A stretch of 64,000 nt of DNA from Candidatus Nomurabacteria bacterium (GTDB taxonomy: Bacteria; Patescibacteriota; Minisyncoccia; Phycocordibacterales; UBA1006): contig JACKGA010000002.1 of assembly GCA_020632195.1 (NCBI GenBank), positions 66,896 through 130,895 on the forward strand. The letters are read 5' to 3'. The translations under genes and the position numbers were made by a program. Every line of letters begins with the position of its first letter. Position 1 is the stretch's first letter. This document shows, one piece after another, positions 7,156 to 62,929 of the stretch. The notes under the pieces were generated by a model that was given only the letters and a program-made list of their open reading frames with translations, made no database searches and had not been told where the DNA came from.

Positions 7156-7909
7156 TTAACCCTCAAGCCATGTAATAACTGCATCATTCACGAGACGAAT
7201 CTGATCCTCATGCTTTCTATAATCATGTTGAACTCCTTTTAAAATCACAAACTTTTTATTTCTTTTAATCTTTTTAAAATAATTTTCTATTAATACAGGA
7301 GGAACCTTTGTATCTTTTTGACCTGCAATGAGAAGGATTGGGCACATGATATGAGTAAGATCTACTCTTTGAGAATATATCTCTTCAACAATTTTGTAAG
7401 GGACTTGGTATATAATCTCAGTATCTTTTTTAGGATGACTCCGTTTACTAATACGAAAACCGCTCTTCCTCCATTCAGTCTTAGTCTCGAGAATATCTCT
7501 ACTTAATGGACACATAATCCCAACAACTTTTTCTATCAAGTGTGGGTATTCTATAGCAAAAGCAACTGAAACCATACCGCCCATACTGTGCCCAATTAAT
7601 GTGATGGGTAATGTGCCATATTCCCTAATTACAAACCGCAGTATGGTATTAATATCATCTTCATATTGCTGAAACCCAAAAGCCCCTATATCCCCATCGC
7701 TTTCCCATGTTCCAAGTGGATCAAAACGGACAACCAAAAAAACCGTTCTTGCGAAGATTTTCTGCAAGTATTACCAAATGAAGATAATCTTTCGAATCTA
7801 GATAACCTTGACATAGAATATCTATACCCTTCGGGGTATTAAGAGGCTCATGAATGGTAAGAGCGAGATTAAGTCCAGTTTGTGATGAGGGGATAAAAAT
7901 ATTTTTCAT
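7156..7909 (-). pseudogene. alpha/beta hydrolase split by a 1-nt frameshift in a T7 homopolymer
   Basis: Two overlapping ORFs (7721-7909 and 7156-7767) join as ...LAENLRKNGF|VVRFDPLGTWESDG... if one T of the run at 7736-7742 is removed. The GHSMGG nucleophile elbow lies in the downstream part. Confidence 0.7.
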
Positions 7910-8749: not shown

Positions 8750-11700
8750 TTAGGCTTCGAATGTTTCTACTATTTCTTCCTCCTCTTCCTCGGGATACAA
8801 ATCCGTCATATCAATGAAATCATCAGTCAATCCTGTCCCAGCCGGGATCAAATCACCAATAATCACATTTTCTTTCAAACCGCGAAGTACGTCATTGCGC
8901 CCTTCGATTGCAGCTGCAATCAGAACACGATTGGTATGCTGGAATGAAGCCGCAGACAACCATGAAGTCGTCGACAATGAAACATTACTAATACCTTGTA
9001 AAATAACATCTGCCTTGGCAGGAAGCTTGCCCTCTGCTTCCAGTTCTTCGTTCACTCGATTCAGGCGCACAACCTCAACGGTTTCACCCGTCGTGAAGAG
9101 TGAATCTCCTGGATCAGTAATTTCACAACGAGAGAACATCTGACGAACAATCAGTTCCAAGTGTTTCCGATCGACACCGGTACCGTGCAATTCATACACT
9201 TTTGAAATTTCTTCAATGAGGTAATTTTCAGCAGCTTCTTTACCTGCAACTTGAAAAATTGCTTGCGGATCACATGACCCATCGGTGAGCGCTTGTCCTG
9301 CTACAACATTTTCTCCCTTTTTCACAATTGGGATACGGCGCGCATCGATCTGATACGTCACCGTCTGTGAGCCTTTGTTGCTCTTGCCTGCCGCATCTTT
9401 TGTCAGATGAAGCGTCTTGATACCATCTTCGGTCACTATATTGCTAATCATACCATCAGCCTCTGCAATAACCGCAGGCACCTTTGGTGTGCGACGCTCA
9501 AAGAGCTCTTCTACACGTGGGAGACCCTGGGTAATATCACGCCCCGTAACACCTCCAGAGTGAAAAGTTCGTAGGGTCAACTGAGTACCCGGCTCACCAA
9601 TGGCTTGTGAGGCAACCGTTCCGACTGCTTCTCCGAGCTTAACCAAATGATTACGCCCAAGATCAAGTCCGTAACACTGGCTACACAATCCATGCCCGGC
9701 TTCACAGGTCAATGGTGAACGTACGGTGACTTCCTCCACACCTGCAGCTTCGATTGCTGCAGCAACCTCTTTCGTAATCAACGTATTACGATTAAAGACA
9801 TTATTCCCTTTTGGATCTTTTACTGTATCACCAGCAACACGACCAATAATCATATCTGAAAGAGATTTCTCAAGCCCATCGATCACCTGTGCACGCATCA
9901 CGAGACCCTTGGTGGTACCACAATCATCTTCACTGATAACTACTTCCTGTGCCACATCATGCAGACGACGTGTGAGGTATCCGGCTTTCGCTGTGTTGAG
10001 CGCGGTGTCAGTCAGACCCTTACGCGCCGTAGTCGTGTTGATGAAGTATTCCAGCGGGGTAAATCCTTCTTTATAGCAAGAACGAATCGGGAAATCGAGC
10101 ATGTGCCCTTTGGCATTAACAATAATTCCCTTCATACCAGCTACCTGCGAATATGAATTCATATTCCCACGAGCCCCAGAGGTCATCATCATGTCCATGG
10201 CAGCATTCTCGGTCAATTCTCCTTTCAAAAGCTCCATAATTTCATGTTTTACTTCTTCCCATGTTTCAATTGTCATACGATAGCGCTCTTCATCAGAAAT
10301 CAGTCCACCATCATATTGTTCATTGATTTTAGCAACTTTTGCTTCGCCTTCCGCCATTTTTTCATTCTTACCAGCTGGCACGCGTGCTTCATCCATACCA
10401 TGCGTAATTCCCGACATAGTAACGTATTTGTTACCAAAATGCTTAATCTTGTCGAGCATTGCCGGCGCTTCATCCACACCATAGCGATCAATCACTTCAG
10501 AGATGATACGGTTAAGTTGTTTTTTTCCAATAGCCTTATTGATAAAGGCAAAATCATCAGGGAAAATACTATTGAAGATAAGCAGTCCTACTGATGTTTC
10601 GAAGAACCCCCCTTCATACTTTGCATATTTAAGAGTATCACTTCCACGGACTTTGATACGAGCACGGAAATCAATAATCTCATAATCATAGAACATAATC
10701 GCTTCATTTACAGATCCAAAGACGCGTCCTTCACCTTTGGCACCATCGACCATAGTCGTCATCCAATATGCCCCGAGGACAATATCCTGCGATGGAGCCA
10801 CGATAGGATCACCCGTCTGTGGTTTCAAAAGGTTTTTATTTGCCGCAATCAATTCTCGTGCTTCGCGCTGTGCTGGTTCTGACAATGGCAAGTGGACCGC
10901 CATTTGGTCACCGTCGAAGTCTGCGTTGAATGCAGAACATACCAATGGGTGTACCTGAATAGCACGCCCTTCGATCAATACAGGGTTGAAAGCCTGAATA
11001 GATAGACGGTGCAAAGTCGGTGCACGGTTCAAGAGAACATACTTTCCTTTAATGACGTGCTCCAAAATTTCCCATACTTCATCATCGGCTTCTTCGATCA
11101 TGCGGTTCGCTCCACGGATGTTGAAGGCCAATTCACGTTTGATAATTTCTGCCATCACAAAGGGACGGAATAATTCCAATGCCATGTGTTTTGGCAATCC
11201 ACATTGATTCAAATGCAAACGCGGACCTACCACAATCACCGAACGACCCGAGTAGTCGACTCGTTTCCCCAAGAGGCTTTTTCGAAAGAGACCCTCTTTC
11301 CCCTTTAGATTATCGGCAAGTGATTTGAGCTTGCGTGTTTGCGCTTTACTCATCGCCGCTGACCCTGAGTGTTTACGGATAGAGTTATCAATAAGAGAGT
11401 CGACTGCTTCTTGCAAAATACGTTTTTCATTCCGCAAAATCACATCAGGAGCACCAATTTCCTGCAATTTTTTGAGACGATTATTACGATTGATCACACG
11501 ACGATAGAGGTCGTTGATATCGCTTGTCGCATGACGCCCCCCTTCGAGTGCCACCATCGGGCGCAGTGCCGGAGGGATAATAGGGATGACCTGGAGGAAC
11601 ATCCATTCTGGGTTGGTATGTGAACGGATAAGCGAACGGATAAGTACCAGACGCTTCTGGATTTTTTCTCGTTGTGCTTTTGTCGCTTCGACACGTGCAT

Positions 11701-18369: not shown

Positions 18370-18409
18370 GAATCTAGTACACATCCCTCCACCCATCAAT
18401 CTTCTTATA
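18370..18409 (-). repeat. trmD 3'-end copy B (between the two cassettes)
   Basis: Minus strand reads TAT AAG AAG ATT GAT GGG TGG AGG GAT GTG TAC TAG. It is 31/40 identical to the real trmD end in an ungapped alignment, with the stop codon in the same register. It begins 2 nt after the yafQ stop. Confidence 0.7.
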
Positions 18410-18411
18410 CA

Positions 18412-18699
18412 CTAATCGAAAATATCCGCATGTGTTCCAATATCAACTAATAACAAAACTAACGAATTCTCGATAATTTGATACATTAACAATATATCAT
18501 ATCGGATATGGCATTCTCGATAGCCTTTGAGCTTGCCCTGCAATTGATGATCTTTGTATTTAGGTGGTAATTGTTCCCCAGCCAACAAAAGCCTAACAAC
18601 GTGGTCAGCCTCGGCAATCATCTTTTTATTTAATTTCCCAGATCGTTCAAGTCTTTTGTAAGATTTATTAAAATCTCTCGTTCGGCGCAAAATATACAT
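18412..18699 (-). CDS. yafQ: type II toxin, YafQ/RelE family mRNA interferase
   Basis: FNKSYKRLERSGK...LPPKYKDHQLQGKLKGYRECHIRYDILLMYQI...LLLVDIGTHADIF matches the YafQ pattern. It lies downstream of a DinJ-like gene. Confidence 0.85.
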   Translation of the reverse strand: MYILRRTRDFNKSYKRLERSGKLNKKMIAEADHVVRLLLAGEQLPPKYKDHQLQGKLKGYRECHIRYDILLMYQIIENSLVLLLVDIGTHADIFD

Positions 18700-18724
18700 A
18701 TGTCTTCATCATAGTTATTTTTTA

Positions 18725-18982
18725 TTAATTTTTCATATCGTCAATCATCTCTTGAAATGAGCTATAAGCTTTCCCATTCTGTAACGCATCCTGCACCTGC
18801 GCATCCCAGCGTCGCCTGAGGACTTCTTCGTTGTGGGTTGGAAGAAAAGGTAAACCTTTTTCAAAAACAACTTGCTTAAAAAACATCTTGATTGCAGTAG
18901 ACATGTCCAATCCCTGTTTTTCAAGGGTTTTTTGTGCTTTCTTTTTTAATTGTTCGTCAATACGAATAGTAACAGTGCTCAT
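18725..18982 (-). CDS. dinJ: type II antitoxin, RelB/DinJ family
   Basis: TVTIRIDEQLKKKAQKTLEKQGLDMSTAIKMFFKQVV is a ribbon-helix-helix DinJ-like N-terminus. It lies upstream of yafQ. Confidence 0.8.
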   Translation of the reverse strand: MSTVTIRIDEQLKKKAQKTLEKQGLDMSTAIKMFFKQVVFEKGLPFLPTHNEEVLRRRWDAQVQDALQNGKAYSSFQEMIDDMKN

Positions 18983-18990
18983 ATATTATG

Positions 18991-19018
18991 AGTATATACA
19001 TTGTTAGTACATTGTCAA
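18991..19018 (-). promoter_or_regulatory. promoter/operator of the dinJ-yafQ cassette
   Basis: Minus strand reads TTGACA, 16 nt, TATACT, 8 nt, ATG. An 8-nt direct repeat ACAATGTA occurs twice (13-nt period) across the spacer and is a candidate antitoxin operator. Confidence 0.6.
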
Positions 19019-19047
19019 TGCAATCAAATTATCGGAAAAGAAAGAAT

Positions 19048-19087
19048 AAATCTATCTCCCCTCCCTCCACTCATCAATCTTCTTGTG
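19048..19087 (-). repeat. trmD 3'-end copy A (the functional gene end)
   Basis: CAC AAG AAG ATT GAT GAG TGG AGG GAG GGG AGA TAG ATTT. This is the reference for copies B and C. Confidence 0.7.
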
Positions 19088-20396: not shown

Positions 20397-20867
20397 TTAT
20401 ACGTCTTCTTCAGTCTTTTCTAATGCTGGAGCTTCTTCTGCTGGAGCTTCTTCTGCTGGAGCTTCTTCTGCTGGAGCTTCTTCTGCTGGAGCTTCAGAAG
20501 TTTGCTCTGCTTCTGCTTCGGAGGCAACCTCTTCGGCTGATGTTTCGGCAGGAGCAGTAGCTGGAGCTTCTTCTACTGGTTTTTCAGTAACGATAGGCGT
20601 TTTCTTTGGTAGAGCATTGATCTTATCAGCTTTCACAATTTCTTTATCTACCAAGAAATTATGCACCGTGTCTGATGCCTGTGCACCAACTCCCAACCAA
20701 TATGTAATGCGATCAGCATCAAGAGTAATATCGCCAGACTTGGCATTATAACTTCCAAGGATTTCTTTGAATCCACCTGATTTTGGTCCGCGACGACCAT
20801 CCGTCAATACCACACGGAATTGCGGGTCGTGACGTCGTCCAATGCGTTGTAGTCGAATCTTTAACAT
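20397..20867 (-). CDS. rpsP: 30S ribosomal protein S16 with A/P/E-rich C-terminal extension
   Basis: MLKIRLQRIGRRHDPQFRVVLTD S16 N-terminus. ATG 20867 is preferred. The tail contains (EAPAE)n. Confidence 0.93.
   Translation of the reverse strand: MLKIRLQRIGRRHDPQFRVVLTDGRRGPKSGGFKEILGSYNAKSGDITLDADRITYWLGVGAQASDTVHNFLVDKEIVKADKINALPKKTPIVTEKPVEEAPATAPAETSAEEVASEAEAEQTSEAPAEEAPAEEAPAEEAPAEEAPALEKTEEDV
20425..20495. repeat. 15-bp tandem repeat, about 4.5 copies (gctggagcttcttct)
   Basis: Read directly. It encodes the APAEE repeats of the S16 tail. Confidence 0.85.
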
Positions 20868-40902: not shown

Positions 40903-40921
40903 GTACCGAGTACTTCAAATC

Positions 40922-41027
40922 GTGTCGTCCTAGAACTTTTCTGAGAAAGGAAAAAAATATCTTGGATCCAGGATATCGTAACCGCACCCTACCGCACCCT
41001 GGGTCCCCGCCTGCGCGGGGATGACAC
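40922..41027. mobile_element. MITE-like element, 106 bp, GTGTCGTCC...GGATGACAC inverted ends
   Basis: The ends and about 49 nt plus 27 nt of flanking interior align with the reverse complement of the 59600 copy. It contains GGATCC, a tandem accgcaccct x2 and a CCCCGC-ctgc-GCGGGG hairpin. Confidence 0.7.
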
Positions 41028-54831: not shown

Positions 54832-54897
54832 GTGTCATCCCCGCGAAAGCGGGGATCTAAGTAATTGCGTTGGATCCTGACATTCGTCAGGATGACA
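54832..54897. mobile_element. MITE-like element, short 66-bp copy
   Basis: gtgtcatccccgcgaaagcggggatc...tggatcc...caggatgacaa shares the ends, the CCCCGC hairpin and the GGATCC core with the other copies. It lies between convergent trhO and the rpe-like gene. Confidence 0.65.
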
Positions 54898-56104: not shown

Positions 56105-56782
56105 TTATTGAATGCTTCGGCGGATTTTTTCTGTCTCACGAACAAATTCAGTATAGTCTTCCCTGTTGCTTTCAAAATCAGCACGACCAGATTCCATACT
56201 TTCTTTACGTTCTGATAAAAATTCTTGAATTATTTTGTATACATCATACGGCATCTTAATATTGTTCATCTGGTCAAAACTTGTTTGGCTACCACCTTTA
56301 CTCGTCGAGGTCATTCGTCCTGTATCAATCATGATGCGTCCTGTATTGAGCATCTTCCCTACCAATCCAACATTTACAAAAACACTACGCACCTGATCGT
56401 AATAAATCGACCTCATATCAGCTCCGATAAGCCCAGAACGTAAAATAATACGCTTATTCGTAATCACATACACCGATGTGATCGCAGCAATAAATTGTAA
56501 GGCAAAAATAAAGATTGGAGCGCCAATAAATATTGGACCAAAAATCCTGGACGCATTCCTACATGCTTCCCCCACGTGCTCGACCCCATTGATAGTACAC
56601 GTTGCATCTGGCCCGCTTGCAAGACTCGGTATAAAAACTCCGACAATAAGAAAGATAACGAGGATAAGCGTCAGAGGACTCAGTACTGTGGTAAAAATCA
56701 TCGAAAGAAAATTTTGCCGATCGCACCATGCTACCTCTTCTTCTTTTTCAAGAATATGTTGTATTTCGGTTGGTGTCTGCAT
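56105..56782 (-). CDS. membrane protein with bacterial PH (bPH_2/YdbS-like) domain
   Basis: Two TM helices, then YVITNKRIILRSGLIGADMRSIYYDQV. Confidence 0.7.
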   Translation of the reverse strand: MQTPTEIQHILEKEEEVAWCDRQNFLSMIFTTVLSPLTLILVIFLIVGVFIPSLASGPDATCTINGVEHVGEACRNASRIFGPIFIGAPIFIFALQFIAAITSVYVITNKRIILRSGLIGADMRSIYYDQVRSVFVNVGLVGKMLNTGRIMIDTGRMTSTSKGGSQTSFDQMNNIKMPYDVYKIIQEFLSERKESMESGRADFESNREDYTEFVRETEKIRRSIQ

Positions 56783-56794
56783 AGAGATTATCTT

Positions 56795-57853
56795 TTACGA
56801 ATTGAACTTCTTCCCCGCTTTCACTACGTGCTCTACCAAAGAGTTCGTATAGCCCATTTCATTGTCATACCAAGCCAAAACTTTTACCAAATTACCATCG
56901 ACAACTTTAGTAAACGATAAATCAACAATCGAGGCATATGTCGAGCCGATAATATCTGAAGAAACAATTGGGTCTTCATTGACGGTAAAGATATTGTGCC
57001 AGCGCTCATCTTCAGCAGCCTTTTTCAAAATATTATTGATTTCTTCTACCGAGGTATCACGCGACGCGATAAAGGTGATATCAGCAATAGACCCAGCCAC
57101 CACTGGCACACGCATAGCAATACCATCAAATTTATCCTTAAGCTGTGGCAAAGCCAGCGCTGTCGCTTTTGCAGCCCCCGTCGTCGTTGGGATAATGTTT
57201 TGTGCAGCGGCACGCCCGCGACGATAATCTTTTTTATCGGGACCGTCCACAAGTGATTGTGTGGCGGTATATCCATGAATGGTATTGAGCATAGCTTTTT
57301 CGATACCGATTGATTCTGACAAAATCGTCATCACCGGAGAGCCGGAGTTCGTCGTACATGAGGCATTCGATGTAATGGAACATGTCGCCAGCTGATCATC
57401 ATTGACACCCATCAATACGGTTGCTGATACACCATCGACGGCTTCCCCTTTAGCTGGAGCCGAAATCACGACATGCTTTGCCCCAGCGTCGAGGTGCATT
57501 TTTGCATCATTGTAGTCGGTAAAAAATCCCGTTGATTCAACGACAATATCAATATTCATATCTTTCCATGGTAATTGTGCAGGATCACGCTGCTGGAGGA
57601 ACATAACCTTTTGCTCATCAATCGTTAATGATGAACCGTCTTCAGCATAGTCGATATGATAATCGGTGTAGCCCTGCGCAGAATCATACTGGAGCAAATA
57701 ACCAAGATTATGTGCATCCGAAAGGTCGTTGATAGCGACGATTTCTAATTCGGGTCGTTCGAAGGCGAGCTTGAAAAATGCGCGACCAATACGACCAAAG
57801 CCGTTGATAGCAACGCGTGTTTTTTTGATTTCTTGTGGTTGGGTTTCTGACAT
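56795..57853 (-). CDS. gap: glyceraldehyde-3-phosphate dehydrogenase
   Basis: INGFGRIGR Rossmann N-terminus, active site SNASCTTN and WYDNEMGY. ATG 57853 is preferred. Confidence 0.95.
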   Translation of the reverse strand: MSETQPQEIKKTRVAINGFGRIGRAFFKLAFERPELEIVAINDLSDAHNLGYLLQYDSAQGYTDYHIDYAEDGSSLTIDEQKVMFLQQRDPAQLPWKDMNIDIVVESTGFFTDYNDAKMHLDAGAKHVVISAPAKGEAVDGVSATVLMGVNDDQLATCSITSNASCTTNSGSPVMTILSESIGIEKAMLNTIHGYTATQSLVDGPDKKDYRRGRAAAQNIIPTTTGAAKATALALPQLKDKFDGIAMRVPVVAGSIADITFIASRDTSVEEINNILKKAAEDERWHNIFTVNEDPIVSSDIIGSTYASIVDLSFTKVVDGNLVKVLAWYDNEMGYTNSLVEHVVKAGKKFNS

Positions 57854-57920
57854 AAATTTAGAGGTTAGGTTTGAGTATGGAGACATTATAGCAAAATATG
57901 TCTTGTGCTCCTACTTACTT
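57733..57920. repeat. 188-bp direct repeat, copy 1 (functional gap 5' end plus promoter)
   Basis: Ungapped alignment with 58980-59167 shows 13 mismatches in 188 by hand count. Confidence 0.85.
57885..57893 (-). promoter_or_regulatory. gap promoter, extended -10 TGcTATAAT
   Basis: Minus strand reads ttttgcTATAATgtctcc. The leader is about 25-30 nt. Confidence 0.5.
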
Positions 57921-57995
57921 GATCCCTATACTGACCCTAAAAAAATACTGGACAAAATTAAATATATGGTGTATCGTGAAAAAAATATAGTTTTT

Positions 57996-58043
57996 ATTTG
58001 GTTACTAGGCAAGATACTTACTTGTCTTGTGTGGTAACCAAAT
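57996..58043. repeat. imperfect palindrome upstream of the repeat-protein gene (outer arms atttggttac / gtaaccaaat perfect)
   Basis: Read directly. It ends 9 nt before ATG 58053. Confidence 0.5.
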
Positions 58044-58052
58044 AAAATAGAA

Positions 58053-58622
58053 ATGAATACTATCAAAATTTTAGAGACACTCTTGGCACAAGGGGAGTAT
58101 GAATTAGCTAGAACAAGAGCTTCTCTACTTCCAGAGCCACAGCGTACCGAACAACTGATACGTATACTGGATAAGTGTATTGAGGAAGGTTCGTGGTTTG
58201 GGGCACGTAATACTGCGGATCTACTTCCAGAGCCACAGCGTACCGAGCAACTGATCCGTATACTGGATAAGTGTATTGAGGAAGGTTGGTCGGGTGATGC
58301 ACGTAATACTGCGGATCTACTTCCAGAGCCACAGCGTACCGAGCAACTGATACGTATACTGAATAAGTATAGTGAGGAAGGTTCGTTGGGTGGGGCACGT
58401 GAGACTGCGGATCTACTTCCAGAGCCACAGCGTACCGAGCAACTGATACGTATACTGAATAAGTATATTGAGAAAGGTTTGTTGGGTGGGGCACGTGAGA
58501 CTGCGGATCTACTTCCAGAGCCACAGCGTACCGAACAACTAATCATTGTGCTGGATAAGTATATTGAGGAAGGTTCGTTGGGTGGGGCACGTAAGACTGC
58601 AGGTTTGATATCTAAAAAATAA
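58053..58622 (+). CDS. tandem-repeat protein, five 32-aa alpha-helical-looking repeats
   Basis: The unit is ARxTADLLPEPQRTEQLIRIL(D/N)K(C/Y)IEEGxxxG. The plus strand is chosen because it has an ATG, a stop and an intrinsic terminator 40 nt downstream. Confidence 0.7.
   Translation: MNTIKILETLLAQGEYELARTRASLLPEPQRTEQLIRILDKCIEEGSWFGARNTADLLPEPQRTEQLIRILDKCIEEGWSGDARNTADLLPEPQRTEQLIRILNKYSEEGSLGGARETADLLPEPQRTEQLIRILNKYIEKGLLGGARETADLLPEPQRTEQLIIVLDKYIEEGSLGGARKTAGLISKK
58125..58604. repeat. 5 x 96-bp tandem repeat
   Basis: ctacttccagagccacagcgtacc recurs at 58125, 58221, 58317, 58413 and 58509 (exact 96-nt period). Confidence 0.9.
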
Positions 58623-58660
58623 TCATTACACCCTAAAAACTAGGGTACGGACTAGAATTG

Positions 58661-58693
58661 AAAAAAACGGAATCATTGTGATTCCGTTTTTTT
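58661..58693 (+). terminator. rho-independent terminator of the repeat-protein gene
   Basis: acggaatc-attgt-gattccgt flanked by A7 and T7. Confidence 0.8.
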
Positions 58694-58735
58694 GTAATAA
58701 GATTTACTTACACAGTGAAGAGTAAGAATTTCTAC

Positions 58736-58979
58736 TTATCTATTTGCATTCAACCAATCGTTTAGGTATTTATATGCTTCCTCCGTTGGGCCTCTATAAC
58801 TGGCAAGCTCAACACCTTGGGTGTTGAAAATTACATATATCCCACCATAATCTGGATTATATTCCCAGGTTTTTTGCCCAATAGCATATCCATCAGCAGT
58901 AAAATGCGTAACATGTAAATAAGTTTGTGGATAAATAGGCTTCCCTGTTTTATCTATATGACAGAAGTCGTAGCGACGA
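58736..58979 (-). pseudogene. start-less C-terminal gene remnant (possible WG-repeat-type protein)
   Basis: The open frame reads ...HIDKTGKPIYPQTYLHVTHFTADGYAIGQKTWEYNPDYGGIYVIFNTQGVELASYRGPTEEAYKYLNDWLNANR*. It has no ATG/GTG/TTG upstream and is joined out of frame to the duplicated gap fragment. IDKTGK is reminiscent of WG/KWG repeats (weak). Confidence 0.4.
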
Positions 58980-59100
58980 TTTCTAATTCGGGCCGTTCGA
59001 AAGCGAGCTTGAAAAATGCGCGACCGATACGACCAAAGCCGTTGATAGCGACACGTGTTTTTTTGATTTCTTATGATTGAGTTTCTGACATACGTGTATA
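58980..59100 (-). pseudogene. duplicated gap 5' fragment with premature stop
   Basis: ATG TCA GAA ACT CAA TCA TAA compared with the functional ATG TCA GAA ACC CAA CCA CAA. The rest is colinear with gap codons 8-40. Confidence 0.8.
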
Positions 59101-59167
59101 GGTTAGGTTTGAGTATGAAGACATTATAGCAAAATATGTCTTGTGCTCCTACTTACTTTATTTTTCC
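58980..59167. repeat. 188-bp direct repeat, copy 2 (decayed gap 5' end plus retained TGcTATAAT box)
   Basis: See copy 1. Confidence 0.85.
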
Positions 59168-59278
59168 GAACATCATACAACTACTGGAGTATATTGACAA
59201 ACATACTAAATTATAATTAAATACTCTATAAAATCCTTTTTAGTCTGCATATAATTATTTAACTAAAATTACAAAATA

Positions 59279-59458
59279 ATGAAAAAAACTGAAATCTTAC
59301 TTTTATTACTAGGTGTTTTATTCTTTTCATCCTTCTGTCTTGGGCTCGGTTCAACAGGAGAATCAAAAAAATATTATGGGATAGTCTGTTTTTGCATTTT
59401 AGGAGCTTCATTCCTTAAAATCTTGTATCTATCTTATAAAAGATACATAAAAAAATAG
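59279..59458 (+). CDS. possible 59-aa two-helix membrane protein
   Basis: MKKTEILLLLLGVLFFSSFCLGLGSTGESKKYYGIVCFCILGASFLKILYLSYKRYIKK. It is one codon below the track cutoff. Confidence 0.35.
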   Translation: MKKTEILLLLLGVLFFSSFCLGLGSTGESKKYYGIVCFCILGASFLKILYLSYKRYIKK

Positions 59459-59599
59459 CTACTCTAGTTAGTAAAATTAAATACTCACAAGAAATTTGTG
59501 GGTATTTTATTTTGTTGCTTCCTTCCGAGCTTTACATAAATTCAATAGTCGCTCCGCTCTTTTCTTCATTTAATACCAACTAGTCATGACGTCTCTCAT

Positions 59600-59738
59600 G
59601 TGTCATCCCCGCGAAGGCGGGGACCCATTTATGGACCGAAAGATCAAATAGTTGAAATTGCATCTAATAATTCTATAAGAATAAGAAATGGATCCCAGAT
59701 ATTTTTCTTCGTTCCTCAGAAAAATTCTAGGATGACAC
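59600..59738. mobile_element. MITE-like element, longest copy (139 bp), GTGTCATCC...GGATGACAC
   Basis: 9-bp perfect terminal inverted repeats, a subterminal CCCCGC-gaag-GCGGGG hairpin and an internal GGATCC. It has no coding capacity. Confidence 0.7.
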
Positions 59739-59751
59739 GGTCGGAGCTTTC

Positions 59752-62700
59752 TTAATCAAACAAACTTCCCTGCACCACTTCCCCCCTCATCACTTCTAGG
59801 AATGCTAGTAATTCTTCATTTCCTGGGTCCTGTGAAAAATCTTTTTCGAGCAATGTACCATCGAGGATATCCTGAACTAATTGATTAATTTCTTCGCGTA
59901 GTTCTGCTACATCGGTATCTGTAATTTCGAAAACTTGCTGTTCAAATTCACCTTTACTATTGGGCTCAATAAAATCAAAAATTGCCTCACGGAAATCATA
60001 CTGCCCGGCAAAAGCGTCATGAAGGAGTAATTTATAAAAAGTCGCCTGGCGTTTGATCTTGGCGCGACGATCTTTGTCCATATCAGAATATGCGCGCCCG
60101 GTTTTATAATCCCACACCGTAAACGTACCATCTTCATTTCGTGTAATTTTGTCGATCACTCCAGAAAGCAAAAGCTCGTGCTCGCCAAATGTTCCAAATG
60201 AAATACCCGTAATACGTTTTTCATTAAATGTCGGGATCATGAACTCTGTATGATAGTGCTGTACATAGGCTTCGAGGATCTTCCAACCACGGTCTTCGAA
60301 CTCGGCATAATGAGGATTGCTCTCGAGCGTAGACTGAAAACAAGACCTGAGTATTGTCATGTCGGGTATCTCGAGGCTGCGTGCCGCCTGGTCAAAGTAT
60401 TTTTCCAATGTACCGTGAATGAGATTACCAAAATCAAGAAAATGGCTACGCGCTTCAGGAAGTGCTACTAGATTGCGGAAAAAATATTTCAGTGGTGATT
60501 CTATGTAATTATTGAGCGCAGAAACTGAAAGCGATTTTGAGAAGAACAAGCGCGTAGTGTATTCTGTATCCATAAGACTCGTAATATGACTGTGCTCTTC
60601 AGAAAAAAAGTCAATAATATCACGAGTGTGTGTACTCTCCCATGATGTCATATCTACATGTTCAATCTCTGGGATATCTGCAATAAGCGCCGAAGCACTT
60701 TTTTCTTTTCCTTGAGCATCAATAATATACGAAGAAATGTGACATTCTTTTTTGGCACGTGTCATAGCAACATAGAGCAGACGTCGTTCATCCTCTGTAT
60801 CACCATCGCTAAAAGTATCAAGTGGGAGCGAAATAGTATCGGACATACCGCGTTTATGCATAAGCTTGGTAATATACACCGTATCAAATTCCAACCCCTT
60901 GGATCCATGGAATGTCATCAATTGCACACCGTGCGTCATCGTATGAGCAAGATTCATAGTGATGTGGTGTCTGCGCAGAGTACTAAAATACTCAATAGCA
61001 TCATCAAAAGAGAAATGCCCGCGGGCAAGAGATTCCTTTTTGATTTCATCAAAGACTTTTTCAATAATCGCAATGCCCTGTGAAGAGTCTTTGCGACCCA
61101 ACACATACGACAGTATTCCCGATTCACGAATAAACCAAGAAAAAAAAGTCATCATGTCGGAATTTTCTGATTCACTTTTCGCCTGGATTAAAAACATCGA
61201 AAGATCACTAAACGCCTGTTGTTGTTCTGGGGAAATGTCGAGATCTTTCAGGCGAGCCTGATCGGAAATAATTGAGTATATTCGTTTACGCGTTTGTTTT
61301 TTTGCTGATTTTGCTGCATTGATAGCTTTCTGTACGGCATATACATCAAGATTAAGAAAATCAATAAAGAGCACCTTGGCGAGCATTTCATCATTTTCAA
61401 GATCATGGATAGAGACAAGGAGAAGAAACATTTTGAGCACAAGAGGATCTTTGAGAATATCTTTTTTTGAAAAATCCTGTATAGGGATGTCATACACCGC
61501 AAGCAAATGCCTGATATCATCAGCATCTTTATTATTACGATACAAAACTGCAATATCATCAGCATGTTCACCTGCTTCAATGCGTCGCTTGATATCCTGG
61601 GCAACCCAGAGTGCCTCTAATTTATAATTCTGAAATTGTCGGTACGCGATGGTGCCACCATGGTCAAAAAAAGCCTCGAGCTGTACTTCAGACTCATGAT
61701 AGGGCGACTGAGAAATAAGAGCATGAGCGTGATCAAGGATATTTTGGTGCGATCGATAATTATGAGAGAGCTCGATAATCCTTGTTGTAGGAAGCTTTTG
61801 AAGCAGTGTCTGGTAACTTTCTTCGCTAGCTCCAGCAAAACGAAAAATCGATTGTTTGCTATCTCCTACGACAAAGATATTGGGGTTTCCTTCCCATACT
61901 GGATGATCGATCAAAGTCCAAAGAATACGGTTTTGCGCATCATTGGTATCCTGATGTTCATCTACCAGAATATAGTGATACTGCTCTTGCATATCTTGTT
62001 TGAAGTCATCATTAGTTTCAAGTAAGGTGACAAGCGAGAGTATGAGATCGGCAAAATCATAGAGTTTTTTCTGATTGAGGGCCTGTTGATAAGCACTATA
62101 TATCTGAACTAGTTCCAATGCTTTGTCACGACGATTCTCAAGTTTTTTCATTTCACTGGGCTTACGATCTCCTTTTTTGAATTCTCGATAGGCACGTTTG
62201 TAAAACATGTCTGGGTGATCTTTATCTTCATCACATTGCATATGAATACGGTCTCTAAGACCTTCAGGAGTCTCTCCCTCCCCTTTCACTTTGCCGAGCG
62301 AAAAAGCAATGTCTTTGATCGTTGAGTCGCGGCGTTTGAATTTTGAAAAAAACTCAAGGGAGTCCATGCTATCCACCAGCCCTTCGAGGATTTCAATTTG
62401 TTCCACAGGAGAAATCAAACGAGCACTACTCAACTGAGGAAAATATTCAGGATAGGCTTTGATGGTGTCTTCAGCGAACGAATGAAAAGTAGCAATCGTT
62501 ACACGATAGGCAAGTTCGCTCCCCACAATACTCGCCAGGCGCTGACGCATGTTGTAAGCAGCAGCATTGGTAAAGGTTAGTGCCAAAATATTCTCGGGCT
62601 CCATGCCATCCTGGCGCAGAATATTGGCAATACGTAGAGTCAGAATCTGTGTTTTTCCTGTCCCTGGACCTGCTACAACCATCACCGGGCCTTCGATAGT

Positions 62701-62766
62701 GTCGACTGCCTGACGCTGAGCATCATTGAGTATGCTATAGAGTTTTTCAAATTGATCCGTATTCAT
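59752..62766 (-). CDS. UvrD/PcrA-type helicase fused to a C-terminal PD-(D/E)XK (RecB/AddA-like) nuclease
   Basis: Walker A AGPGTGKTQ, motif II DEHQDTN and later helicase motifs. The C-terminal VIDKITRNEDGTFTVWDYKTG nuclease motif is present. ATG 62766 is preferred (7 nt after TATAAT). Confidence 0.88.
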   Translation of the reverse strand: MNTDQFEKLYSILNDAQRQAVDTIEGPVMVVAGPGTGKTQILTLRIANILRQDGMEPENILALTFTNAAAYNMRQRLASIVGSELAYRVTIATFHSFAEDTIKAYPEYFPQLSSARLISPVEQIEILEGLVDSMDSLEFFSKFKRRDSTIKDIAFSLGKVKGEGETPEGLRDRIHMQCDEDKDHPDMFYKRAYREFKKGDRKPSEMKKLENRRDKALELVQIYSAYQQALNQKKLYDFADLILSLVTLLETNDDFKQDMQEQYHYILVDEHQDTNDAQNRILWTLIDHPVWEGNPNIFVVGDSKQSIFRFAGASEESYQTLLQKLPTTRIIELSHNYRSHQNILDHAHALISQSPYHESEVQLEAFFDHGGTIAYRQFQNYKLEALWVAQDIKRRIEAGEHADDIAVLYRNNKDADDIRHLLAVYDIPIQDFSKKDILKDPLVLKMFLLLVSIHDLENDEMLAKVLFIDFLNLDVYAVQKAINAAKSAKKQTRKRIYSIISDQARLKDLDISPEQQQAFSDLSMFLIQAKSESENSDMMTFFSWFIRESGILSYVLGRKDSSQGIAIIEKVFDEIKKESLARGHFSFDDAIEYFSTLRRHHITMNLAHTMTHGVQLMTFHGSKGLEFDTVYITKLMHKRGMSDTISLPLDTFSDGDTEDERRLLYVAMTRAKKECHISSYIIDAQGKEKSASALIADIPEIEHVDMTSWESTHTRDIIDFFSEEHSHITSLMDTEYTTRLFFSKSLSVSALNNYIESPLKYFFRNLVALPEARSHFLDFGNLIHGTLEKYFDQAARSLEIPDMTILRSCFQSTLESNPHYAEFEDRGWKILEAYVQHYHTEFMIPTFNEKRITGISFGTFGEHELLLSGVIDKITRNEDGTFTVWDYKTGRAYSDMDKDRRAKIKRQATFYKLLLHDAFAGQYDFREAIFDFIEPNSKGEFEQQVFEITDTDVAELREEINQLVQDILDGTLLEKDFSQDPGNEELLAFLEVMRGEVVQGSLFD

Positions 62767-62773
62767 ACGAATC

Positions 62774-62779
62774 ATTATA
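62774..62779 (-). promoter_or_regulatory. -10 box TATAAT 7 nt upstream of the helicase ATG
   Basis: Minus strand reads ctgaTATAATgattcgtATG. Confidence 0.45.
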
Positions 62780-62801
62780 TCAGAAGTACGTAGCGAAACA
62801 C

Positions 62802-62847
62802 GTCGCGGCGGCGTGCCTCTGTAGATACAAAAGAACGCCGCCGCGAC
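62802..62847. other. 13-bp perfect GC-rich inverted repeat (gtcgcggcggcgt-N20-acgccgccgcgac)
   Basis: Read directly. It lies in the divergent intergenic region, upstream of the helicase -10 box. Confidence 0.6.
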
Positions 62848-62929
62848 TCGCAACTTGATTTATTTCAGAGAATAGTTATGGTTGTTGGGAATAAAAAATA
62901 TTTTTAAACAAAAAAAACAAAAGAAACTT

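Follow-up and report, generated by a model that had tools for sequence, protein, structure and literature searches.

A second, displaced 5' end of gap beside accessory genes in a Candidatus Nomurabacteria contig, best read as a passive recombination scar

The glyceraldehyde-3-phosphate dehydrogenase gene gap of a Candidatus Nomurabacteria bacterium (assembly GCA_020632195.1, contig JACKGA010000002.1, positions 66,896 to 130,895) is accompanied by a second copy of its own promoter and first 40 codons, separated from the working copy by a short segment that carries a gene remnant, a terminator and a gene for a tandem-repeat protein. The whole 64,000-nucleotide (nt) stretch in which this arrangement lies is referred to here as the window, and all coordinates are positions within it unless a relative is named. 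The locus is best read as a passive recombination scar and not as a working device, and it was probably formed by one homologous exchange and one illegitimate joint with the DNA of a diverged relative, an event that displaced a gene terminus; we infer the donor origin of one copy, the uptake of DNA and the type of recombination from the product. A first-pass annotation of the same DNA had suggested either recombination with a diverged donor or site-specific capture. The former is favoured by the present analysis and the latter is not, given the variable breakpoints, a truncated open reading frame (ORF) at the junction and the lack of any recombinase among the ORFs screened.

The two gap 5' ends and the segment between them

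The duplication is an ungapped direct repeat of 188 nt (57733-57920 and 58971-59158; start to start 1,238 bp) with 13 mismatches and no gaps, or 93.1% identity (blastn self-hit, E=3e-76), which the tool extends to 191 nt (57733-57923 and 58971-59161). Each copy comprises 67 nt upstream of the ATG, including TGCTATAAT, followed by 40 codons and one further nucleotide. The first-pass annotation had the length, mismatch count and content of the repeat right; its distal copy, given as 58980-59167, lies 9 nt lower, so that homology ends at 58971 and not at 58980, while the continuation from there, out of frame, into an ORF without a start (58736-58969) was correctly described. Among pairs with at least 30 of 36 positions identical and lying 100-3000 bp apart, the 64 kb holds only the gap repeats and a second set at trmD, intragenic tandem repeats aside, and 10 Markov shuffles of the window yielded no repeat pair at 30/36 identity.

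The proximal copy (57733-57920, minus strand) provides the working promoter, with its extended -10 element TGCTATAAT at 57885-57893, the leader, the ATG and codons 1-40 of gap, an intact type I gene of 352 codons (56795-57853, minus strand). That this is the functional 5' end, as first proposed, is borne out by both Pfam domains of the product (Gp_dh_N, 2.8e-33; Gp_dh_C, 3.4e-55) and by its identity over the same 352 residues, with the same start, to NCBI MCB9809041.1 from a Candidatus Nomurabacteria bacterium; the ATG at 57853 also agrees with the starts in two relatives (L161 and L164). The distal copy (58971-59158, minus strand) is a dead gap 5' end. It keeps an intact TGCTATAAT (59123-59131) and the ATG at 59091, and codons 5-7, which read CAA CCA CAA in the proximal copy, read CAA TCA TAA here, giving P6S and the stop at codon 7 that had been noticed previously. 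Along the direction of gap transcription (minus strand) the order is helicase gene, AT-rich spacer, distal copy, remnant, terminator, convergent cargo gene, hairpin, proximal copy and gap. The terminus next to the cargo thus belongs to the intact gene, and its orphan duplicate is found on the far side of the cargo, as is also the case at trmD; with one displaced copy per site, neither locus of the window forms a serial array.

The segment between the copies measures 1,050 bp (57921-58970). Next to the distal copy lies a C-terminal remnant of 77 codons plus stop (58736-58969, minus strand), joined out of frame to gap codon 40 and lacking any in-frame start codon. A word-indexed search with the remnant returned no homologue; a full HMMER search then aligned it to the C-terminal ~70 residues of proteins of 220-253 amino acids (aa) (P0132, P0141, P0146 and P0159), and WG_beta_rep was present in all three homologues scanned (P0132, P0141 and P0146), which places the remnant with secreted WG-repeat proteins of the PF14903 family. 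The closest homologue, P0132, sits on a 1.1-kb contig. Because the alignment is to the C-termini of WG-repeat proteins, the remnant is a true C-terminal piece that has lost ~150 N-terminal codons, in keeping with its first description as a gene remnant. At its boundary with the cargo gene, a bidirectional intrinsic terminator (58661-58693, both strands; A7, an 8-bp stem and T7), also visible as a palindrome in the self-comparison, folds stably on both strands (-17.3 and -16.4 kcal/mol, z = -6.0 and -7.1), which agrees with the terminator originally assigned to the bracketed tandem-repeat gene.

The cargo gene (58053-58622, plus strand) is transcribed divergently from gap and encodes a 189-aa protein of 32-aa tandem repeats (96-nt period, 5 copies, 91% matches in Tandem Repeats Finder). 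Its AlphaFold model is all helical, with six helical hairpins and a pLDDT of 95.5; a fold search gave generic TPR-like or designed-repeat matches alone, with TM scores of at most 0.49, and comparison with Pfam gave sub-threshold noise only. Ten distant homologues were found, at most 48% identical, and each of the three whose context was looked up lies in an unrelated accessory region, for instance beside Fic, SWIM or HigBA-like genes. A very stable hairpin with 23-bp arms (57992-58047, plus strand; -30.2 kcal/mol, z = -7.5) occupies the divergent intergenic region between gap and the cargo gene, where it was picked up as an inverted repeat and by folding; it ends 5 nt before the cargo ATG and may act as an operator, as an insulator or as a block to translation.

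The hallmarks of a transposon or insertion sequence are absent: the repeats that flank the insert are 188 bp each, above 30 bp and not 2-14 bp, the insert ends carry no terminal inverted repeats, and there is no transposase. Comparison of ~50 of the 55 ORFs called in the window, those of the insert included, with Pfam gave no integrase, transposase, resolvase or other recombinase domain. An origin of the insert in a phage or plasmid was considered and rejected, as viral contigs and phage records gave no match.

Origin of the displaced copy

The contig belongs to a metagenome-assembled genome and its two copies differ by ~7%, as strain variants might, so that an assembler could have stitched two variants of the gap upstream region in series. 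We consider such an artefact very unlikely. A separately assembled contig of 916 nt (L174, from the Logan assembly of SRR15882951) runs through the AT-rich spacer, the distal copy, the codon-40 junction and the remnant (window 58702-59627), with the proximal junction outside it, and differs from the window at 4 single nucleotides in 916; it was found through a HMMER match (P0131) to a spurious ORF called across the distal copy. This contig may derive from the same or a similar community, yet it is a separate assembly with variants of its own. No k-mer of intact gap recurs at the junction of codon 40 with the remnant, which hence offers nothing to mislead an assembler, and an analogous duplication is present in a relative at 85% GAPDH identity in three assemblies from different samples.

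In this second contig, codon 7 of the distal copy is CAA and codon 22 is ATT, both as in the proximal copy. Since CAA is still present there, the codon-7 stop is a recent polymorphism of the window strain, and the older divergence between the copies, measured with the distal copy of this type, is 11/188. The changes of the distal copy that are specific to the window are one nonsense and one synonymous. Of the four positions at which the two assemblies disagree, three lie in the 188 nt of the dead gap copy and one in the other 728 nt, although these are small numbers. Gene conversion from the proximal copy was tried as a source of these differences and rejected, as two intervening variable sites are unconverted.

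Comparison of gap loci in related strains, proposed in the first-pass annotation as a check, provided an insert-free locus. In a relative with 81% GAPDH identity (six contigs, L164-L169), the order helicase, 160 bp, gap, rpiB, rpe, rhodanese, transketolase is syntenic with the window and gap has a single 5' end. The duplication and the rest of the 1.9-kb spacer between helicase and gap in the window are derived, because this relative has only the 160 bp and one gap 5' end. The 85% relative (L161-L163, three samples) has two extra genes between helicase and gap. One of these, a 144-aa membrane ORF directly upstream of gap (L161 2493-3050; also in L162 and L163), starts with an exact 44-nt stretch of gap leader, ATG and first 12 codons, and is preceded by a diverged copy of the gap -10 region. 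This duplication is an in-frame fusion with its breakpoint at codon 12, compared with codon 40 in the window, and its upstream limits differ too; judged by its sequence, the ORF looks like a chimeric gene made by a duplication of the gap 5' end. Its identity to gap is 100% in the coding part against ~66% in the promoter part.

The two spaces on either side of gap, towards the helicase and towards rpiB, hold different cargo in each lineage examined. Between gap and rpiB, the window has a gene for a 225-aa membrane protein with a bPH domain (56105-56782) and no visible flanking duplication, the 81% relative has a 23S_rRNA_IVP protein (L164 6826-7107), and the 85% relative has nothing (L161 4070-4126).

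We propose that a lineage of this Paceibacteria species would have acquired DNA from a strain or species that was related to it yet diverged, ~6% different over the conserved stretch. Integration would have taken a single homologous exchange, at or close to gap, and a single illegitimate junction, in which gap codon 40 was joined to the middle of a gene for a WG-repeat protein. As incoming and resident DNA would each have carried a gap promoter and 5' end, the product would hold both: one would remain on gap and work, and the other would be displaced by 1.24 kb and decay. The truncated WG-repeat gene, the bidirectional terminator and the helical-repeat gene divergent from gap would have come along in the same transfer. 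The substrate may have been linear, with homology-facilitated illegitimate recombination anchored in gap or on the helicase side, or it may have been a circularised fragment that entered by a single Campbell-type crossover within the 188-bp homology; the product cannot tell a linear from a circular substrate, nor which of the two copies is foreign. Natural competence is reported in Patescibacteria of the Saccharibacteria group (PMC10633639), and our literature search found no paper tying Patescibacteria to illegitimate recombination.

The arrangement of the junctions fits such an exchange. Only one novel junction is present, that of gap codon 40 with the remnant, and it lies inside a truncated, start-less ORF, as expected if a DNA fragment had ended in a break there. 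The other repeat boundary is just upstream of the promoter, where the cargo already varies between lineages.

The substitutions between the copies point in the same direction. Had the displaced copy evolved neutrally ever since a duplication in place, non-synonymous changes should make up about half or more of the total (omega ~0.5). Between the proximal copy and the L174-type distal copy, five differences are synonymous and one non-synonymous, a ratio of non-synonymous to synonymous differences (pN/pS) of 0.06 (p ~0.03 against omega 0.5), and the pN/pS values of three gap 3' pairs from the survey described below are 0.05 (L013), 0.18 (L077) and 0.13 (L056). Pooled over the four pairs, 32 of 44 differences are synonymous (pN/pS 0.11, P=4e-7 against omega 0.5). 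Polarised with L161 and L164, the synonymous changes fall on both copies. Owing to this synonymous excess, the copies appear to have spent most of their divergence in working genes, that is, in different lineages, and decay only after displacement fits the youngest changes of the distal copy, one nonsense and one synonymous. Compared with 168 other gap ends, the gap 3' remnants have lineage-specific residues in common with the host copy, which suggests that the donors were related lineages; these 60-nt segments are too short for reliable ranking.

The main alternative is that the duplication arose in place. Foreign DNA would have entered a break in the gap 5' region, through long staggered-break fill-in or template switching, for example, and 188 bp of target would have been copied on both sides of it, identical at birth and since diverged by 6-7%. 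The architecture is that described for long target duplication, with repeats above 30 bp and no mobility genes, in mostly naturally competent species (PMC2853133). Several observations weigh against recombination with a diverged donor, some of them in favour of duplication in place. The nearest relative of the distal copy is the proximal copy beside it, at 93% identity compared with 86% for L161, as an old in-place duplication would likewise predict, and the copies in some relatives are near-identical (44/44 in L161, 94/97 in L047 and 126/129 in L065) and could themselves be in-place duplications. The illegitimate joint has a single shared base, with a shared CGAC displaced by 4 nt, and thus no clear microhomology. 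At this locus by itself, the synonymous excess consists of 6 differences (p ~0.03), and the pooled test borrows other loci and assumes that they have the same origin. Finally, no genome of the same species besides L174 was found in public collections, and neither a donor genome nor an empty-site allele; the comparison suggested by the first-pass annotation found its insert-free single copy in the 81% relative and no empty site within the species. Scans of genome and metagenome contigs for GAPDH gave nothing above 65% identity among the matches listed, and exact look-ups of the 352- and 363-aa GAPDH proteins, the cargo protein and a 59-aa ORF of the AT-rich spacer, in an index that does not include the source contig, had no match.

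Duplication in place is nevertheless a doubtful account of the locus, if a possible one. It leaves the pN/pS of 0.06 here and 0.11 in the pooled pairs to be reconciled with the ~0.5 expected, and it needs two novel junctions as opposed to one in the donor model. A divergence of 6-7% would also make the event old, as the segment is only 15% different from that of the 85% relative, and a 188-bp repeat with copies 1.2 kb apart would have had to survive for that time.

The single join of gap codon 40 to the middle of a gene could also be that of a tandem duplication. Starting from an ancestor with the order WG-repeat gene, cargo gene, promoter and gap, a 1,238-bp unit from the middle of the WG-repeat gene to gap codon 40 would have been duplicated, and the upstream unit then deleted up to the promoter. 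This seems improbable to us: the second deletion would have to stop exactly at the upstream repeat edge, a 1.2-kb tandem repeat is unstable, and the synonymous excess is equally unexplained. In addition, the sequence on the upstream side of the distal copy contains nothing that recalls the cargo.

Recurrence at other gene ends and neighbouring features

The architecture seen at gap recurs elsewhere. At trmD, the last 10 codons plus stop (19049-19084) are repeated at 18371-18406, with the stop codon in register (18371-19084, minus strand; 30/36 identical, including two exact blocks of 13 and 9 nt), and a relB/yafQ toxin-antitoxin pair lies between the repeats, directly after trmD (18412-18982). 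The parallel drawn between the two sites in the first-pass annotation therefore stands, and its suggestion of a recurrent mechanism in this lineage is strengthened by further cases in relatives.

These cases come from a survey of 1.6 Mb of Paceibacteria loci fetched for gap, from which paralogue motifs and palindromic intergenic repeats were discarded. In three loci the gap 3' end and its duplicate bracket a small insert between gap and rpiB (L077 6948-7341, L052 7027-7310 and L056 5034-5376). In a fourth (L013 6950-9354), two displaced gap 3' ends follow one another with accessory ORFs in between, so that three copies of the last ~60-85 nt of gap are present (the working end, 7541-7592 and 9300-9351), each with its stop in register; the two remnants are closer to each other than either is to the working end. 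Duplicated 5' ends were found as well: the promoter and first ~18 codons of an ABC-ATPase gene, 94/97 identical, around 2.2 kb (L047 2987-5375), the first ~26 codons of tktC, 61/68 identical, around a 102-aa ORF (L096 8098-8935), and 129 nt of the 5' end of a membrane protein gene, 126/129 identical, where a paralogue pair is possible (L065 6296-7690). In all recurrent cases the outer repeat boundary coincides with a gene edge, either the promoter edge or the stop, and the inner boundary falls within coding sequence at a place that varies.

Other matches were rejected: those in L014 and L107 are LamG-like repeats inside upstream genes, those in L125 and L041 are N-terminal paralogues of pilins, and those in L106, L143, L012 and L164 are palindromic or other intergenic repeats, with inspection at the sequence level for L106 and L143 only.

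Direct repeats of a gene end around an insert, a pattern that recurs at several gene ends, and the exact 13- and 9-nt blocks kept by the trmD repeats could also be produced by site-specific capture, in which a cassette with a surrogate gap 5' end would use an attachment site in gap and a recombinase supplied in trans. The variability of the breakpoints makes this quite improbable. Independent events at the gap 5' end break at codon 40 in one case and codon 12 in the other, with different upstream limits, and the targets are unrelated (gap 5', gap 3', trmD 3', tktC 5' and ABC-ATPase 5'). One junction truncates an ORF, and the Pfam screen of ~50 of the 55 ORFs called in the window returned no recombinase domain.

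A more speculative and, in our view, unlikely possibility is that the segments are mobile cassettes free of recombinases, whose integration arm would be a copied terminus of a conserved housekeeping gene. Host recombination between the repeats would release a circle made of the cargo and one repeat, natural DNA uptake would spread the circle or a linear form, and, in another Patescibacteria host, one crossover within the conserved gene end would re-insert it without harm to the gene. Serial entry would build arrays such as that of L013. If true, small genomes with few classical mobile elements would have in such cassettes a general means of gaining genes.

Upstream of the distal copy, the AT-rich spacer (31% GC; 59162-59751) extends to the stop codon of a UvrD/PD-(D/E)XK helicase-nuclease gene (59752-62853, minus strand), which Pfam and synteny with L164-L169 identify as the conserved upstream neighbour of gap. 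The spacer contains the 59-aa ORF mentioned above (59279-59458, plus strand), strongly hydrophobic, without a recorded homologue and not called as a gene in L174, with a terminator-like hairpin behind it (59479-59507). It also contains a ~140-bp palindromic structured repeat element (59600-59739) that ends in the hairpin GTGTCATCCCCGCGAAGGCGGGGACCC and resembles a repetitive extragenic palindromic (REP) sequence or a miniature inverted-repeat transposable element (MITE). The hairpin motif occurs at three intergenic sites of the window (59600-59739, 40921-41027 and 54832-54858), with none expected by chance; only the first two match over most of the length of the element. A relative has one copy at the matching rpe/rhodanese spacer (L164 8512-8559).

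Elsewhere in the window, a gene inserted between PfkB and transaldolase relative to L164 (44979-48641) encodes, in diverged 153-nt tandem repeats, a 1,220-aa protein with DUF5122 beta-propeller repeats, Big domains and a peptidoglycan-binding domain, and the C-terminal tail of ribosomal protein S16 (20404-20508) is made of 15-nt tandem repeats encoding EAPAE-type units.

Significance and relation to known systems

Patescibacteria have very small genomes with few recognisable mobile elements and a gene order dotted with small variable genes. The locus described here and ~ten parallel cases point to an entry route for such genes, namely recombination that takes hold in a conserved housekeeping gene and closes with an imprecise second joint; the event would survive since a spare gene end arrives with the incoming DNA. 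Past transfers between related lineages would then be marked, and dated, by the displaced ends, and in the 85% relative such an event appears to have used the gap promoter and first 12 codons to make a chimeric, presumably expressed gene. If genome-wide, the pattern would offer a simple way to recognise recently acquired genes in the sequences of uncultured bacteria, and would show that two phenomena known mainly from restriction-modification and toxin loci also occur in a further phylum and at housekeeping genes.

Insertion with long target duplication, reportedly recognised by Nobusato et al. in 2000, is the closest structural match. In the survey of Furuta, Abe and Kobayashi (2010, NAR, PMC2853133), inserts of a few kb or less are flanked by repeats of 30 to ~420 bp, which are single-copy in insert-free genomes and some of which overlap gene 3' ends; the repeat pairs are 95-100% identical, transposase and integrase are lacking, and the cargo consists of restriction-modification systems in mainly competent bacteria (proteobacteria, cyanobacteria, Thermus and actinobacteria). 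The gap locus is alike in its long direct repeats, its lack of mobility genes and its overlap with a gene end. It differs in that the copies are 93% identical with mostly synonymous differences, albeit in a small sample, instead of near-identical at birth, and in its cargo, which is a helical-repeat protein and a gene remnant here and a toxin-antitoxin pair at trmD. The host is also different, being a member of the Patescibacteria, and the insert-free comparison is with L164-L169, only 81% identical in GAPDH.

Displacement of gene termini by homology-facilitated illegitimate recombination is said to have been proposed for loci of Rhs, contact-dependent inhibition (CDI) and type VI secretion system (T6SS) effectors by Jackson et al. 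in 2009. At such loci, incoming DNA matches the constant part of a gene and brings a new gene end together with cargo, the old end becomes an orphan, and repeated events build arrays (Kirchberger et al. 2017, PMC5361080). The combination of a new end with cargo and an orphaned old end is shared by the loci studied here, and L013 resembles the orphan arrays. The genes affected, however, are housekeeping genes (gap, trmD, tktC and an ABC ATPase) and not polymorphic toxins, and the displaced piece, which in the window is a promoter together with a 5' end, performs no function that could be diversified. In place of a toxin and its immunity protein, the terminus is the N-terminus of GAPDH and the cargo a helical-repeat protein.

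Homology-facilitated illegitimate recombination in natural transformation was reportedly established by de Vries and Wackernagel (2002), Prudhomme et al. (2002) and Meier and Wackernagel (2003), work cited in part through PMC5361080 and PMC3240628; the joint usually has 3-10 nt of microhomology and the usual outcome is a deletion. One homologous anchor, an illegitimate joint nearby and trapped non-homologous DNA are common to that process and to the gap locus. The process is defined by experiment, whereas here the product alone is seen, with no evident 3-10-nt microhomology and with part of the anchor duplicated. Some integrative elements restore the 5' end of the gene that they enter, as SXT/R391 does at prfC; they are ~100 kb long and depend on an integrase and a fixed attachment site. 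Insertion at the 5' end of a housekeeping gene, with a replacement promoter and first codons, is what they have in common with the gap locus, where there is instead an insert of ~1 kb, no integrase, and breakpoints that vary from one event to the next.

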